From IMG/VR virus record IMGVR_UViG_3300012347_000217, positions 110,664 through 174,663 of that record: 64,000 bases of DNA. One strand, written 5' to 3'. Origin of the DNA: a virus (Duplodnaviria > Heunggongvirae > Uroviricota > Caudoviricetes). The position numbers were made by a program, and so were the translations under genes. The notes beneath the pieces were generated by a model that saw only the letters and a program-made list of their open reading frames with translations, was not told the DNA's origin and did no database searches. Each line of letters begins with the position of its first letter. Within the stretch, counting starts at the first letter, position 1. Below, one piece after another: positions 1 to 63,727 of this stretch.

Positions 1-1002
1 ATGGATCTAGACACATCATATAACACCTTCGACGAATCAGGTGGTTATTTGTTCAAGAATGGTATCAGAACATATGGTAACGGCGCAGCGATTGCAACAG
101 CCAAGTTCTTGAATGGTTTGATTATCGGTCAAGGTCAATACATCAACGACGATGGTTTCCCAAGTTCTTTCCAAGTTTTGGAAAGCGAAGACTACAACGA
201 CTTCACCTACGACCTGATTGTACAGAAATCATACTCAGCATACAAAGATGTTCTGTTCAAGATGCTTCATCCAGCAGGTACAAAAGTTGTGCCTATCAAT
301 TCTGTCAAGTCACAGAAGCATATCGAGATTAACAGAGAATCTTTCGGTGCAAACTCACACACTCTAGGTTACTACACAGGTGATGCTGGTTCTAATGCAA
401 CCATCCACACATCGTTCAGTAATACAAGTAACAACATCATCAAGTTTGATGCACTTGTTGGTTCTAACCTAGCAACATATTTGTTTACTGGCTCCAAGAT
501 TTCGATGAAGTCTAAAGAAGGACCAAACGTATACTCAGATGTAATCTCGGTAGACTACACATCAAACACAGCAGTCATCAAAGATAATGTCATTTCTTCG
601 TTTGCAAACGTTGCAACATCAAATGTGGAGTCAACTGGAAGTAAAATAAATATAACAACGTTGACAGGTCAGTATGACATTATCAACAACGGTGAGTACT
701 CAAACACAGCAAGTCCGCTGCGTGATATCGTATTCACTGGTGACAGAATTCGAATCTATGCTAACGCATCGTATATCTATACTGGTACAGTTACATATGT
801 TGAGTATTCTAATAGTGCCGTATTCATCTCACCTAGCATTTCGTTCACTGGTAATAACACATTGGTGTCTATCGGCAGAGATGCAAAAGCAATTGATGTA
901 AGTATCTACAATACTGTAGGTACAATTTATTACCCAGAACTGACCACTGAAAGTGGTAACTCAATAACAACCGAAACAGGATCAATACTGATTTTAGGAT
1001 AA
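1..1002 (+). CDS. gp7: Baseplate wedge subunit, C-terminal part (T4 gp7-like); 5' end lies outside the window
   Basis: Motif YNDFTYDLIVQKSYSAYKDVLFKMLHPAG resembles the conserved gp7 (FSYVI...LLHPAG) segment. It lies upstream of gp8. The ATG at position 1 is probably internal. Confidence 0.65.
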   Translation: MDLDTSYNTFDESGGYLFKNGIRTYGNGAAIATAKFLNGLIIGQGQYINDDGFPSSFQVLESEDYNDFTYDLIVQKSYSAYKDVLFKMLHPAGTKVVPINSVKSQKHIEINRESFGANSHTLGYYTGDAGSNATIHTSFSNTSNNIIKFDALVGSNLATYLFTGSKISMKSKEGPNVYSDVISVDYTSNTAVIKDNVISSFANVATSNVESTGSKINITTLTGQYDIINNGEYSNTASPLRDIVFTGDRIRIYANASYIYTGTVTYVEYSNSAVFISPSISFTGNNTLVSIGRDAKAIDVSIYNTVGTIYYPELTTESGNSITTETGSILILG

Positions 1003-1005
1003 AAA

Positions 1006-2616
1006 ATGTCAACAGTAAAAATTTCAGAATTACCAGTAATCGCACAGATTAACGCAAACACAGCCAACACAATCTTCGTTGGCTTGGATATTCCAACAAA
1101 CATCACTGGTAAGATGACCTTGACCACTTTGGCAAGAGGTCTATATTCAAACAACAACCTAATCGTAGGCAATACAGAATTTCTATTGCCGAACGCAGTA
1201 GCACAGTATACTGGTACATCCGACCTATACGTTCAGACAAGTCTACAAAACTTGGCAGCCAATGGTTCAGGTGATATCGTAGTCACAGCCGACAATGGTA
1301 CAGACACAGCAAACTTCATCGACTTGGGTATTACTGGTTCGACATACACATATCCAGGCTACACAGTGATGAAAAGTAATGACGGTTACTTGCTAGTCGT
1401 AGGTGATACTGAATCTGATCCAGGTGGTAATCTTGTCATCGGTACTGTTACAGAAGGTAAAGATATCACCTTCTTCCAAGGTGGTGCAGAAGCAGCTAAC
1501 GCTGTTGCTCAGTTCAAGTACAATACTGGCCTAAAGTTGTTGAAGAAGCCACTCACATTTGCTGATGGAACAACACAGAACACTGCTGTGTTATATTCTG
1601 GTGTAGATTCACGCATTGCTGCCAACGTGGTCACAATCAATAGTTATATTTCTGCTAATGCGGCCTCAGCCAATTCAGTTATCAACTCACGCATCACTTC
1701 GAATATTGCTACTGCCAACATATTCACACAAGCGGCATATAACAAAGCAAACAATGCACTAGCAAACACTTCTGGTATTTTTGGTGGCAACCTAGACATT
1801 GCAGGTAACTTAACTGTGATGGGAGTTGGTACAACTGGTTTATTCACAGTTAATGCTGCACCATATGCAGCAAATACCACAGCATTTAAAATCTCCGGTT
1901 CAGCAAATGGTTTCTCACAAACACCAAGTAATCAGGGTTACATGATGCAATTGACTGGTTATCCAGACACACCATCACGTTTGGTTGTGGATTCCTTTGG
2001 TGCAAACGTTTATAGTTTATTTGCTGGTCGTTCAGCAAGAGGCACAGCAATCACACCAACGGCAACAGCAAACGGTGATGTGTTGTTGCGAATCGCAGGT
2101 AATGGTTACGGTAACACATTCAGTCAACTTGGCGTTGGTCGCATCGACGTTGTTGCAACAGAGAACTACACAGACTCGGCAAAAGGTTCAGAGATTCAAT
2201 TCTGGAACACAGTTCCTGGTACAAACACTCTGAACAAGATTGTGACCATGAATGCAACTCATACAGAGGTTTCAGGTTACATCAAACCACAAAAAGGTTT
2301 CATCTGGTATCCAAGAACATATCCAGCAGCACAGACCGCAGTATCATTGAGTTTTGTGAATGATGCTGTGATTAAGGTTGATATTGACAACAACATGACG
2401 GTATCTTTTGGTGACCATCTTTCGGGTAAAGTTATTGATATGTGGATAACAAACACATCAGGTTCGGCCCGCACAGTAACGCATGGTTGTACTGCACTTT
2501 TCTCAACAACTAACGCAACGACAGTGACTGTTCCCTCAACATCAACTATCATGTTGAAGTATATCTGTTTCGATGAAACATCTGCCAACGTACACGTTGC
2601 AGCTATCTACGGTTAA
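1006..2616 (+). CDS. Virion structural / fibre-like protein
   Basis: 536-aa ORF with a MSTVKISELP N-terminus typical of tail-associated proteins. It is Thr/Asn/Gly rich, shares modules with the 15278..20848 fibre, and sits between gp7 and gp8. Confidence 0.6.
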   Translation: MSTVKISELPVIAQINANTANTIFVGLDIPTNITGKMTLTTLARGLYSNNNLIVGNTEFLLPNAVAQYTGTSDLYVQTSLQNLAANGSGDIVVTADNGTDTANFIDLGITGSTYTYPGYTVMKSNDGYLLVVGDTESDPGGNLVIGTVTEGKDITFFQGGAEAANAVAQFKYNTGLKLLKKPLTFADGTTQNTAVLYSGVDSRIAANVVTINSYISANAASANSVINSRITSNIATANIFTQAAYNKANNALANTSGIFGGNLDIAGNLTVMGVGTTGLFTVNAAPYAANTTAFKISGSANGFSQTPSNQGYMMQLTGYPDTPSRLVVDSFGANVYSLFAGRSARGTAITPTATANGDVLLRIAGNGYGNTFSQLGVGRIDVVATENYTDSAKGSEIQFWNTVPGTNTLNKIVTMNATHTEVSGYIKPQKGFIWYPRTYPAAQTAVSLSFVNDAVIKVDIDNNMTVSFGDHLSGKVIDMWITNTSGSARTVTHGCTALFSTTNATTVTVPSTSTIMLKYICFDETSANVHVAAIYG

Positions 2617-24590: not shown

Positions 24591-27500
24591 TTGGCTTCAG
24601 CAAATACATTCGTAGTAAAGAACGGCCTTACCGTAGGCACAACCAACGTCATCGCAGCTAATGGCGTCTGGATCGGATCAACACTCGGCTTAACTGGTAC
24701 ACAAGGTCCTACTGGACCTACAGGTCCTGCCGGCGCAACAGGCCCACAAGGTCCCACAGGTCCAGCCGGTGCTACAGGTCCTGCCGGCGCAACAGGTCCC
24801 GCTGGCGCAACTGGTCCAACTGGTCCCGCCGGTGCTACAGGTCCTGCCGGTGCTACAGGTCCTACAGGTCCAGCTGGAGCTACTGGTGCTACAGGTCCCA
24901 CAGGTCCTGCCGGTGCTACTGGTCCTGCCGGCGCAACAGGTCCCGCTGGCGCAACTGGTCCAACAGGTCCAGGAGCAATCGTCACATCGACAACATCAGC
25001 TACTCCTGCATCCTCAGGAACAATTACACTCACAGTCAACACGACTAACCATTCATTTGCAACTGGTAACCGTGTAAGAGCAGTTAATACTACATCGAAC
25101 TATTTCGAAGGTATCGTCACAATCACTGGTACATCATTTGCTATTGAAGCAGATTTTAGTGCAGGCTCATCAACAGCAACATCTTGGACAGTTACGGTAG
25201 CTGGTGCAAGGGGTGCAACAGGACCTTCAGGTCCTACAGGCCCAACTGGTGCTACAGGCCCAACTGGTCCACAAGGTGTATCTGGACCAACCGGCCCAAC
25301 TGGTGCTACAGGTTCTACAGGACCTACAGGCCCAACTGGAGCCACAGGTTCTACAGGCCCAACAGGCCCTACTGGTGCAACAGGCTCAACCGGCCCTACA
25401 GGTCCTGCCGGTGCAACAGGCTCAACAGGCCCTACTGGCCCAACTGGAGCTACGGGTGCCACAGGACCTACTGGTCCTACTGGTGCAACAGGCTCAACCG
25501 GCCCTACTGGCCCAACTGGAGCTACGGGTGCCACAGGACCTACTGGTCCTACTGGTGCAACAGGCTCAACCGGCCCTACTGGCCCAACTGGAGCTACGGG
25601 TGCCACAGGACCTACTGGTCCTACTGGTGCAACAGGAGCCACAGGCCCAACTGGCCCACAAGGACCAACTGGTCCTACTGGTGCAACAGGACCAACAGGT
25701 GCAACTGGACCTACTGGCCCATCATTCATTGCTACTTCGACAACACTCGTAACACCAGCATCAACTGGAACAATTACACTCACAGCAACATCTTCTAACC
25801 ATGCTTTTGCAACTGGTGACCGTGTACGTGCAATCAACACGACTTCAAATTACTTCGAAGGTATTGTAACTATTACTGGTGGCACATCATTTGCCATCGC
25901 AGCAGACTTCAACGTTGGTTCATCAGCGGCATCTTCTTGGACAATCTCATTAGCTGGCGAAAGAGGTTCTACAGGCCCTTCAGGCCCTTCAGGTCCTCTT
26001 GGACCACCAGCACCACAAGGAGCTACGGGTGCCACAGGCCCTACTGGCCCATCAGGACCAACCGGTGCCACAGGTCCTACAGGTCCTGCCGGTCCAGTTG
26101 CAGGTGACGCCAATCAAGTAATCTATAGAAACTCGTCAAACGTTGCAACAGGTAGTGCAAGTTTAACCTTTGATGGAACAATAATTTCTGCGCCACAGTT
26201 GACACTATCCAATTCGCAAGGTGATGAAGGTGGTGAATTATTGTTGGCTAAGCCACAAACAAACTCAAACATTGCAGGCACTGGTGTAACCATCGACGTT
26301 TACCAGAATAAGTTGAGAATTTTTGAACAAGGTGGTGGTGCTCGTGGTGCATATATTGATTTGACTGCCACAACTGCTGGTGTAGGATCAAACTTATTAT
26401 CTGGTGGTGCAACAGGTGCCACAGGCCCAACAGGTCCTGCAGGTGCCACAGGCCCAACAGGTCCAACCGGCGCAACAGGTCCTGCAGGTGCTACAGGCCC
26501 AACAGGTGCTACAGGACCAACCGGCCCAACAGGTGCTACTGGTCCTGCAGGTGCAACTGGCCCAACCGGTCCATCAGGACCAACTGGTCCACTGAAATAT
26601 GCTACCTCTACCACAACAAACACACCAAATAATGGACCATTCAGCTTCACAGTAGCTTCGGCTGACCACGGTTTCGTTGTGGGTGACCGTGTAAGAGTAT
26701 ACAACGTTTCAAACAATTACCTTGAAGGTACTATTTCAGGCTTCGCCGGTAGCGGAACAATATTCTCAATCAATTCCGACTTTTTCGTTGGTTCAACATC
26801 TGCATCATCTTGGATAATCACTTCAGTTGGTTCATTGGGTTCAACAGGTCCAACAGGTCCATCAGGTCCAAGAGGTCCAACAGGTCCAACAGGTCCTAGT
26901 GGTCCAACAGGCCCAACGGGTCCTAGTGGTCCAACAGGTCCTAGTGGTCCAAGAGGTTCTACTGGCCCAACAGGGCCACAAGCTTATGCAACATCATCAA
27001 CAAATCAACAAGCCACTGTTGGTTCTGGATTAACATTAATAACAGACCAAACTTTCCACAGTTTTAGTATAGGAAGTAGAGTACGTGCAATCAACACGAC
27101 TTCGAATTACTTCGAAGGTAATATAACAAGTATATATGGTACTCCTAGCTATTTTGACATATTACCAGATGTGGTAGTCGGTGGATCATTCGCATCATCT
27201 TGGACAATAACTTTAGCTGGTATAGCAGGTGCATCAGGTCCAACAGGTCCAGCTGGTACAGGTGCTACAGGCCCAACGGGACCACAAGGTGTATCTGGAC
27301 CAACAGGCCCACAAGGTGTATCTGGACCAACAGGCCCATCAGGTGGTATTCTCATCAACATGAACGATAATGAACTGGTAACTCCAGTCATTAAAGATTA
27401 TGCAATGAAGGTTAATGCCAGGGGTTCAATTACTGGTGCACAAACACTCGACATGACTTTGGGTAACTATATAACTGCAACAGCAACAGGTGCAATTACA

Positions 27501-48113: not shown

Positions 48114-48151
48114 TGTCAAGTAAATAGCCACCGTTAAGAGTGGTAATTTAG

Positions 48152-48180
48152 AAGAGGAGCAGAAATGCTCCTCTTTTTTT
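48152..48180 (+). terminator. Rho-independent terminator after gp23
   Basis: AAGAGGAGCA-GAAA-TGCTCCTCTT perfect 10-bp stem with a GNRA loop, then TTTTT. Confidence 0.9.
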
Positions 48181-48183
48181 ATC

Positions 48184-48191
48184 CCTAAATA
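48184..48191 (+). promoter_or_regulatory. Putative late promoter (CCTAAATA)
   Basis: Directly after the terminator and 17 nt before the gp3-like ATG. Confidence 0.65.
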
Positions 48192-48208
48192 GATGGTAGG
48201 AGTCAAGA

Positions 48209-56467: not shown

Positions 56468-56489
56468 TTGAGAAATGTTGCTATATGGC

Positions 56490-56518
56490 TTGACTTTCGA
56501 GCTATATAGTAGTATGAT
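56490..56518 (+). promoter_or_regulatory. Sigma70 promoter (TTGACT-17-TATGAT)
   Basis: Intergenic, exact 17-nt spacer, upstream of the HTH gene. Confidence 0.8.
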
Positions 56519-56561
56519 GTGAAACTTGTAACACAAGTTATTTTTTTAATAGGAGTATATT

Positions 56562-61093: not shown

Positions 61094-61474
61094 ATGGCTG
61101 ATTTCAAAGAAATTCTAGACAGTATCCAGAAATCTAAAAAATACGTTCTCGATACTGAATCTGACTACTCACCTTTTGGTGTAAACCGTGTTCTATCATA
61201 TTACAAAGACTCGATTCTTTATGCTAATATGATGAACATGAACCACGACCTCGACCGAAGTTTGCAATACCAGTATCTTCTAAATACCATTAGACCGATG
61301 AAACGACAATTTCAGAATATGAAAAAAGTCGATAAGGTACTAAAGGATATAGAATGTGTGAAACTTTATTTTGGTTATTCTGATGAAAAGGCCAAAGAAG
61401 CTCTACGCATTTTAACAGATGAACAAATCGCTTTAATAAAAGAAAAAACAGAAAAAGGCGGAGTGGTAAAATAA
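61094..61474 (+). CDS. gp62: Clamp loader small subunit
   Basis: YSPFGVNRVLSYYKDSILYANMMN...QYQYLLNTIR...VKLYFGYSDEKAKEALRILT.EQI. Confidence 0.92.
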   Translation: MADFKEILDSIQKSKKYVLDTESDYSPFGVNRVLSYYKDSILYANMMNMNHDLDRSLQYQYLLNTIRPMKRQFQNMKKVDKVLKDIECVKLYFGYSDEKAKEALRILTDEQIALIKEKTEKGGVVK

Positions 61475-61884
61475 TGGTTAAAATCGAAGATATGGTAGAG
61501 GTGACGCTGAAGGAGAAAGACGACTTTTTAAAGGTTCGTGAGACTCTAACACGTATTGGCGTTGCATCTAAAAAAGAAAAAATACTTTACCAATCTTGTC
61601 ATATTCTCCATAAGCAAGGCAAATACTATATCGTACACTTCAAGGAATTGTTTTCGTTGGATGGGAAACCAACAGACTTCTCCGAGAACGACATTGCACG
61701 AAGAAACACAGTAACCAACTTGCTTTCAGATTGGGAACTATTACAGATTGTAGATTCAGAGAAAACAAAAGACCCAACGGTTTCGTTATCTCAGGTAAAG
61801 ATTATCCCTCACAAAGAAAAGAGTGAGTGGCAATTAATTCCGAAGTACAATATTGGTAAAAAGCCTCAAACTTTGGATAAATAA
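61474..61884 (+). CDS. regA: Translational repressor RegA
   Basis: DDFLKVRETLTRIGVAS...LYQSCHILHKQGKYYIVHFKELF.LDG. Confidence 0.97.
   Translation: MVKIEDMVEVTLKEKDDFLKVRETLTRIGVASKKEKILYQSCHILHKQGKYYIVHFKELFSLDGKPTDFSENDIARRNTVTNLLSDWELLQIVDSEKTKDPTVSLSQVKIIPHKEKSEWQLIPKYNIGKKPQTLDK
61876..61883 (+). promoter_or_regulatory. Putative late promoter (GATAAATA) upstream of the structured RNA
   Basis: One mismatch to TATAAATA. The predicted +1 (~61888-61889) coincides with the start of the first hairpin. Confidence 0.45.
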
Positions 61885-61887
61885 TTA

Positions 61888-62081
61888 TTCCCCGGGATGG
61901 GAAGACAGGTTTGCGATCTGTACCTGCACAAGAAACACCGCCTAAACCTACCTTAGGGTCCGTTGTCGTTAACGGTTAAGAGCTTTTGCTCTAGGCGTCC
62001 GAGCTATTGCACTGACACTCGTAGTTGTCCCAGTATAAAGTAAGCTGGAACCGCTGTGCCTTCGGGGCAGCATTTTTCTTT
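61888..62081 (+). ncRNA. Candidate structured non-coding RNA / hsp20 leader
   Basis: The 222-nt intergenic gap is GC-richer than other intergenic DNA here and packed with short complementary segments: a four-way junction plus several hairpins, ending in a C(UUCG)G hairpin and T-tract. Confidence 0.6.
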
Positions 62082-62106
62082 AACTCGCTTTAATTAGGAG
62101 AATAAA

Positions 62107-62526
62107 ATGAACTATGGCAAATCTTTGCTTCCTGCAACTGTTGGTTTTGACCGTCTACTGAGCACCGTCGATGAATTCGAAAGGATGTTCGCTACGACCA
62201 AGTTGGCCACGTATCCCCCATATAACATTATCAAAGAAGACGATACACACTACACTATTGAGGTAGCTGTATCTGGTTTCAAACGTCAAGAAATTGAGAT
62301 TGAAACTGCTGGTAATAAGTTGTATGTGAATGGTGCTGTGCAAACAACCAACACAGAAACGCAATACATTCACCGAGGTATCGGCACAAGGGACTTCTCA
62401 CACAAGTTCACTATTGCTGATAATGTCGTAGTGAAAGATGCCGACCTTGCAGATGGTCTTTTGAAAATTCGTTTGGTAAGCATCTTACCGGAAGAACAAA
62501 AGCCTCGCAAGATTAAAATCGGATAA
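62107..62526 (+). CDS. Small heat-shock protein (Hsp20/IbpA-like)
   Basis: VGFDRL, YPPYNII, YTIEVAVSGF, YIHRGIGTRDF and LADGLLKIRL...PEEQKPRKIKI. Confidence 0.95.
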   Translation: MNYGKSLLPATVGFDRLLSTVDEFERMFATTKLATYPPYNIIKEDDTHYTIEVAVSGFKRQEIEIETAGNKLYVNGAVQTTNTETQYIHRGIGTRDFSHKFTIADNVVVKDADLADGLLKIRLVSILPEEQKPRKIKIG

Positions 62527-62531
62527 AGTAC

Positions 62532-62560
62532 TTGCCTTTTGTCTGAAAAGAGCGTAGAAT
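62532..62560 (+). promoter_or_regulatory. Sigma70 promoter (TTGCCT-17-TAGAAT)
   Basis: Intergenic after hsp20, exact 17-nt spacer. Confidence 0.65.
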
Positions 62561-62591: not shown

Positions 62592-62792
62592 ATGAAACCC
62601 GGTGATTTGAAAAACCCAATTAAATTGCGTAACCGTTTTAATGTAACGGACGTATACTACTCTTTCCCGCATTGGGCACCGAAAGAGATTGATGGTGTTG
62701 AGTTCACACCCGTGGTTGCACGACCACCCTCACAAGATATGACACAGACCATCCACTACCTTCGTAAAGATTCTTTGGAGAAGATTAAATGA
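62592..62792 (+). CDS. Hypothetical protein
   Basis: 66-aa ORF after the promoter, coupled (ATGA) to the next gene. Confidence 0.6.
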   Translation: MKPGDLKNPIKLRNRFNVTDVYYSFPHWAPKEIDGVEFTPVVARPPSQDMTQTIHYLRKDSLEKIK

Positions 62793-63652: not shown

Positions 63653-63727
63653 CCGGCGTTAGTATAATGGATAATACAGCGGTCTTCTACACCGTGAATG
63701 TGGGTTCGATTCCTGCACGCCGGACCA
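63653..63727 (+). tRNA. trnR: tRNA-Arg (anticodon TCT)
   Basis: Acceptor stem CCGGCGT/ACGCCGG; D-arm GTAT-AATGGATA-ATAC; anticodon stem GCGGT/ACCGT with loop CT-TCT-AC; T-loop TTCGATT; discriminator A and encoded CCA. Confidence 0.93.

Follow-up and report, generated by a model that had tools for sequence, protein, structure and literature searches.

The 222 nt spacer between regA and hsp20 in a 64,000 nt stretch of phage DNA (the window; part of the 177 kb record IMGVR_UViG_3300012347_000217, which carries T4-like replication genes) contains a conserved RNA core of about 95–105 nt, which spans positions 61946–62048 and consists of five helices and three pseudoknots. This secondary structure is well supported overall. 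The core covaries among homologues and has no Rfam match, so that an earlier note on this DNA, made from the sequence alone, was right to suspect an uncatalogued structured RNA in the spacer. The core is not tied to hsp20 and is mobile between unrelated contexts. It also lies between tRNAs and at operon ends, in agreement with the independent RNA that the note had considered, and we tentatively read it as an autonomous, stable RNA that would act in trans and be carried on abundant transcripts.

The spacer had been described as a single multi-stem RNA of ~200 nt. When the spacers of 80 regA loci were compared, it proved to be a chain of four separable modules: a late promoter with a 5′ hairpin, an optional H-type pseudoknot, the conserved core, and a ROSE_3-like hsp20 leader. 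In many phages the promoter is followed by two hairpins and then hsp20, without the core. The closest relatives have the conserved block of ~95 nt in addition, and in some of them an NGGGAU-loop hairpin and up to two H-type pseudoknots lie ahead of it. All sequence elements listed in the earlier note were found where it placed them, and, as the note had stated, no true intergenic gap in the window is larger than the spacer according to a crude open reading frame (ORF) caller; the sole longer gap, 25841–26299, looks like a coding part of a long Gly/Pro/Thr-rich gene. The claim that the spacer is also the most structured gap does not hold by folding energy, as its z-score against shuffles was −0.58 or −1.3. 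This is not significant, and the energy z-score was discarded as evidence of structure; the structure of the spacer is shown by covariation instead. Two 95 nt gaps fold far better than the spacer and beat their shuffles (48114–48208 and 56468–56561; z of −4.6 and −4.7), and the former contains a TAAATA site and two hairpins, one of them terminator-like.

The core (Table 1) starts with hairpin P1 and continues into three pseudoknots, P2/PK1, P3/P4 and PK2/P5. In the MAFFT alignment of 61 type A sequences, standard pairs fill 93.1% of cells over 27 pairs, compared with 76.5 ± 0.6% in the shuffle control and 30–40% in the slid-partner control, in which the structure is favoured by having been derived from the same sequences; 14 pairs change on both sides. 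Among 119 anchored sequences, the top ten pairs in a G-test with average product correction all fall within P3, P4, P5 and the mini-hairpin. Independent double changes, counted by parsimony on the tree, are most numerous in P4 (71), followed by P5 (28), P3 (14) and the mini-hairpin (13), and few in P1 (3), PK1 (1), PK2 (1) and P2 (0). Because of these counts, the 3′ domain is firmly supported; covariation in homologues, which the earlier note had named as a check, is thus strong in the 3′ half of the core. The nearly invariant 5′ half likely pairs as drawn, with moderate support for its pseudoknot, though it is less proven than the 3′ domain. Its pseudoknot varies mainly by C/U wobble opposite an invariant G, with few double changes (the related phage sequences labelled L588, L629, L372, L364 and L605), and compensated variants of the 5′ domain occur in L382, L588, L629, L372 and L364. 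The P1 stem is fully changed in L382, L336 and L583. PK2 shows one event in type A (U-A/C-G) and four further pair types in type B.

The search patterns do not account for this conservation, since a search with P5 alone still recovered the 5′ half and a search with the middle alone recovered both terminal loops; the P1 loop was also retained when it was left out of the pattern. The frequent U-G pairs favour the plus strand over an RNA from the minus strand. Two other contacts were considered and rejected. All five pairs of an ACGGU/ACUGU contact are possible in only 22 of 127 sequences, and PK2 better explains the ACY variation. Pairing of CC in loop L1 with the GG before PK1, as in P1.1 of the hepatitis delta virus (HDV) ribozyme, is contradicted by L588, L604 and L629, which compensate in PK1 instead. 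A kiss between loops L1 (UUA/UUG) and L5 (UAA) is a candidate contact that most sequences would allow, with no compensatory change and five GUCA variants.

The helices proposed in the earlier note fared unevenly. Its four-way junction is present in the minimum-energy fold, but the closing helix CGCCTA/TAGGCG could form its full 6 bp in only 4 of 126 homologues; the 5′ strand of this helix belongs to the accessory pseudoknot and the 3′ strand to PK1. The CCTA/TAGG register is not supported; in homologues the pairing is between CCY and RGG, with ACCUUA enclosed. CCGTT/AACGG, CCAG/CTGG (P5, with its 28 double changes) and the UUCG hairpin were all borne out by the homologues, as was GAGC/GCTC, although as an optional insertion. 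For CGAG/CTCG the first three pairs are supported, while the alternative AGCTA/TAGTT is not conserved. The note had missed helix P4, all three pseudoknots and the anti-Shine-Dalgarno (SD) hairpin of the ROSE type.

Core lengths are mostly 80–130 nt and in a few cases reach about 190 nt, with type B measurements slightly short. The longer versions L269, L279 and L314 (170–190 nt) keep both end hairpins. Type B is shorter than type A, has the ACCUUAGG start and the 3′ domain in common with it, and is recognized by the type A model with E values of 0.001–0.05; its 5′ part seems to pair differently, with a covarying pair that extends UUC/GAA. Versions consisting of the 3′ domain only (L520, L537, L554, L578 and L492) are located at the ends of a metallophosphoesterase-like gene or close to them. 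Two of these versions precede terminators, and the contig of L537 also carries a full type A copy.

To survey the distribution, phage contigs were scanned with patterns and the hits filtered by profile; the counts given here are among the matches listed. The core occurs at least 304 times in uncultured phage contigs, representing at least 238 distinct cores. In context-blind scans, 199 of 261 complete copies (~76%) run straight into a ROSE-like leader, mostly that of Hsp20 and in about 35 cases that of an unassigned 61–98-aa protein, whose gene would be co-regulated. The other 62 have no directly joined ROSE leader: in 39 a new putative late or sigma-70-like promoter directly follows the core, at least nine adjoin tRNAs, and in L269 an intrinsic terminator comes next. 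In L364, L629, L643, L802 and L584 the core starts 1–3 nt after a tRNA CCA and ends a few nt before the next tRNA, and a targeted scan found many more cores that begin 1–3 nt 3′ of a tRNA CCA, several with another tRNA immediately behind them. Some copies start 0–12 nt after stop codons, and L825 has a late promoter between the core and the ROSE leader. The core loops are retained across all contexts, and many hsp20 leaders lack the core. At the sensitivity of the model, 10 of 11 genomes of 100–364 kb carry a single copy. The core model found nothing in T4, HTVC008M or C48C1 and scored none of the 69 bacterial matches to one search pattern; a BLAST search of the window and the type A and B cores against cultured phages matched the SD hairpin alone.

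Several contigs with the core or related to those carrying it contain further RNA elements. In tRNA arrays the core is directly followed by another RNA of ~100 nt that is likewise uncatalogued and has a long AU-rich closing stem (L594, L626, L803, L804, L805, L806, L811 and L814); in L803 this RNA has no Rfam match. The tRNA island of L803 also carries a permuted betaproteobacterial transfer-messenger RNA (716–1101, minus strand), which hints at this host group for its phage. L529 has a weak YrlA-like match (1925–2030), and a group I intron lies in the related contig L314 (602–906, minus strand).

Of the roles considered, only that of a self-contained RNA fits all of these contexts. The three chained pseudoknots would probably stack into one rod displaying two conserved loops, CUU in P1 and GUAA in P5. 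The phage would place the core, usually once per genome, into an abundant transcript, mostly the late hsp20 leader and alternatively a tRNA array or an operon end, from which it would be transcribed. Processing by the host, through tRNA maturation or decay of the flanking mRNA, may then leave a nuclease-resistant species of 85–190 nt, which would act in trans. Its most plausible mode of action would be to bind a protein of the host or the phage as a decoy or scaffold, in line with proposals made for other cargo RNAs from the tRNA islands of phages. tRNA processing is established, and in these phages it could free the array copies as discrete molecules. We rank this trans-acting RNA first, if tentatively, because tRNA maturation would release array copies and one copy per genome suffices. 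Three points weigh against it: about three quarters of the copies, types A and B alike, are found 6–13 nt ahead of a ROSE leader, with a variable gene on the upstream side; copies in this position have no dedicated terminator after them; and the sampling of IMG/VR is uneven.

The majority context and the short, fairly fixed spacing to the ROSE leader would instead suit a cis helper of the carrier transcript, either a nuclease barrier that stabilizes the mRNA from either end or a standby site for bS1/30S. In the latter case the core might help ribosomes to load on the ROSE-sequestered SD of hsp20, by analogy with the 5′ pseudoknot of E. coli tisB. Precedents have been described (PMC7708055 and PMC6690012). 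Unrelated, interchangeable pseudoknots ahead of the core are expected if fold outweighs identity, and the starts shortly after stop codons, together with the 3′-domain-only versions at gene ends (L520, L537 and L492), point the same way. We nevertheless consider a cis role unlikely, as there is no mRNA to act on where a copy lies between two tRNAs, the invariant loop and junction bases appear to exceed the needs of a generic barrier, and the second ROSE-like leader of this genome lacks the core. A riboswitch aptamer or attenuator acting on hsp20 through the UUCG hairpin and U-tract is very improbable, in spite of the aptamer-like conservation, the position 5′ of a stress gene and a terminator-like pattern. 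No alternative helix is conserved, no expression platform overlaps the aptamer, and in nested folding, which leaves out pseudoknots, removing the core does not alter how accessible the SD is predicted to be. Moreover, the UUCG hairpin is ROSE hairpin I, which is present without the core, and a quarter of the copies among the matches listed have nothing downstream to regulate. The switchable attenuator of the earlier note is likewise unsupported, as the UUCG hairpin and U-tract occur in core-less leaders too; coupling to RegA, also suggested there, is unlikely because the gene upstream of the core varies widely.

New ribozyme classes are rare. The core could be a self-cleaving ribozyme of a new class, built from three chained pseudoknots and processing tRNA arrays and stress-gene transcripts in freshwater phages that belong to several size classes. 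It would cut polycistronic RNA to free the hsp20 mRNA or to trim tRNA trailers, comparable to the theta ribozymes of gut phages, which lie within 5 nt of a tRNA (PMC10879173). The size of the core, its several pseudoknots, its invariant G/A residues, the peripheral insertions tolerated at one site and the sharp 5′ boundary 1–3 nt after the tRNA CCA are all compatible with cleavage, and such traits have been used for picking ribozyme candidates (PMC10085705). However, a descriptor of HDV-like topology, which detected an HDV control sequence, matched only 1 of 353 loosely collected stretches, and a hammerhead core was found in 16 of the 353 on either strand, with CUGANGA not conserved. The core has no match to any Rfam ribozyme, and for hammerhead, twister, twister-sister, pistol, hatchet, hairpin and glmS this was so at E cut-offs of 10, 1 and 0.5. 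In addition, there is one copy per genome, many copies start at promoter +1, where a 5′ cut would do little, and types A and B seem to differ in the pairing of their 5′ domains. We regard self-cleavage as doubtful and place it below a cis role. A compact and widespread RNA with a well-supported three-pseudoknot structure lends itself to assays of cleavage, screens for ligands and structural studies.

Table 1. Features of the regA–hsp20 locus, with positions in the window
Feature	Position	Strand	Details
P1	61946..61959	+	ACCU/GGGU; loop ACCUUA, CUU invariant; 99.5% paired
Core 5′ pseudoknot	61960..61999	+	P2 CCGU/ACGG 61960-63/61972-75; PK1 GUCGUU/GGCGUC 61965-70/61994-99
P2a (optional hairpin)	61979-61992	+	variable; self-complementary in L208, L213, L232, L589
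Core central pseudoknot	62000..62029	+	P3 CGA/UCG 62000-02/62019-21; 2-bp mini-hairpin 62003-62010; P4
P4	within 62000..62029	+	GACAC with G62024 and UGUC (62026-29); U62025 bulged
Core 3′ pseudoknot	62011..62048	+	PK2 ACU 62011-13 with AGU 62039-41 in P5 loop
P5	62030-34/62044-48	+	CCAGU/GCUGG; loop ends in conserved GUAA
Putative T4-type late promoter	61876..61883	+	GATAAATA, 7/8 match to TATAAATA; by sequence; overlaps regA stop codon
Optional 5′ hairpin	61888..61903	+	UUCCC/GGGAA, loop CGGGAU; ahead of 84/251 cores
Optional accessory H-type pseudoknot	61906..61941	+	stem 1 CAGGU/ACCUG 61906-10/61922-26; A-rich linker
ROSE_3-like hairpin I	62053..62071	+	bulged G, UUCG loop, then U-rich linker; outside core
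ROSE-type hairpin II	62084..62100	+	CUCGCU pairs with SD AGGAG around bulged G; ROSE_3 alignment
regA	61474..61884	+	T4-type translational repressor; PHROG 242, E 9e-61; PF01818
hsp20	62107..62526	+	small heat-shock protein; PHROG 432, E 8e-39; PF00011

Downstream of the core, the spacer is an ordinary ROSE-like leader. The earlier note had stated that it does not resemble ROSE, yet 62053–62100 is a two-hairpin leader with an anti-SD motif, and its best Rfam match is ROSE_3 (RF02523; 62050–62112) with 17.8 bits. Homologues score up to 31 bits, so that neither this leader nor the best homologue reaches the gathering score of 43 bits. The lower stem of hairpin I has five of five pairs in 170 of 224 homologues, and the hairpin II motif is CUCGCU in 195 and CUUGCU in 26. 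A U(U/C)GCU motif, which defines ROSE elements (PMC3669281), pairs with the SD in 222 homologues, here as UCGCU with AGGAG. As in ROSE_3-like thermometers, a stable 5′ hairpin is present and a small heat-shock gene lies downstream. By likeness to these thermometers, this leader probably gates hsp20 translation by temperature. The predicted opening of the SD is 0.04 at 25 °C and increases only to 0.11 at 45 °C. Positions 62057–62069 resemble a terminator by pattern only; strong termination at the U-tract is unlikely, because in phages lacking the core hairpin I and the U-tract directly follow the promoter. A second ROSE-like leader, also without the core, lies outside the window near position 82,694 of the same genome (G000). 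The small gene after it is like those of the 61–98-aa proteins that follow the core elsewhere, and its product looks phasin-like by eye.

Upstream of the core, the putative late promoter predicted in the earlier note matches by sequence, and TAAATA is found 5–13 nt upstream of the first RNA module in many homologues. The TTCCC/GGGAA hairpin was likewise recovered in homologues, with a CGGGAU (60) or AGGGAU (35) loop in 95 of 97 cases; we take the AGGGAU version to resemble the loop consensus of CsrA/RsmA sites. The note had given ACAGGT two mutually exclusive partners. ACCTG forms stem 1 of the accessory pseudoknot, with compensatory changes by eye in L261, L296, L647, L083, L116 and L145, while ATCTGT is not conserved; stem 2 would be GCG/CGC (61913–15/61939–41), just 3 bp here. 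At least five unrelated families of H-type pseudoknot interchange in the slot that separates the 5′ hairpin from the core, with at most two in a row; they occur at the accessory position here and upstream of the core in L004, L005, L006, L088, L111, L234 and L586. Some resemble the preQ1-I/ToxI fold by eye, with no evident ligand-pairing C.

The nearest cultured relatives of RegA are from cyanophages (~70% identity), whereas close relatives are uncultured IMG/VR contigs. Relatives of Hsp20 are at most 45% identical and gave no information on the host. A sigma-70-like promoter lies 3′ of hsp20 (62532–62560), followed by a 66-aa ORF (62592–62792) that has no Pfam or PHROG match and whose relatives adjoin regA in many phages. 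A single tRNA gene (63653–63724) is the only Rfam match of the window above the gathering score.

The analysis thus separates an ordinary ROSE-type hsp20 leader from an unexplained core. The leader shares two hairpins, U(U/C)GCU–SD pairing and the position upstream of a small heat-shock gene with the ROSE-like thermometers of Pseudomonas ibpA (RF02523; PMC3669281), but it is phage-borne and below the gathering score, and the likeness does not extend to the core upstream. Among 4,227 Rfam families none matches the core, and we found no published description of it, although it may be among the 8,495 automatic IMG/VR models of Fremin et al., 2023 (PMC10690425). Theta ribozymes, which are minimal HDV-like ribozymes (PMC10879173), also contain several pseudoknots, and some core copies likewise start no more than 5 nt from the 3′ end of a phage tRNA. 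In contrast to them, the core is mostly away from tRNAs, its helix order is not the nested double pseudoknot of HDV, and it has no equivalent of the J4/2 cytosine. The operator pseudoknot of T4 gene 32 lies, as the core does, upstream of a sequestered ribosome-binding site. The same holds for the 5′ pseudoknot standby element of tisB (PMC7708055). The core differs from both in its unrelated sequence, in having three knots rather than one, and in contexts without a downstream gene. Like the core, GOLLD, ROOL (PMC12286853) and T4 rnaC/rnaD are phage-encoded RNAs among tRNA genes, and ROOL is also rich in pseudoknots. The core is far smaller than GOLLD and ROOL, matches neither Rfam model and mostly resides in an mRNA leader; it has no similarity to rnaC/rnaD, and lacks a CCA end. 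We assign it, as a new family, to the structured phage cargo RNAs, which are a known but loosely defined kind. With a length of 95 nt, such a member lends itself to testing far more readily than GOLLD or ROOL.
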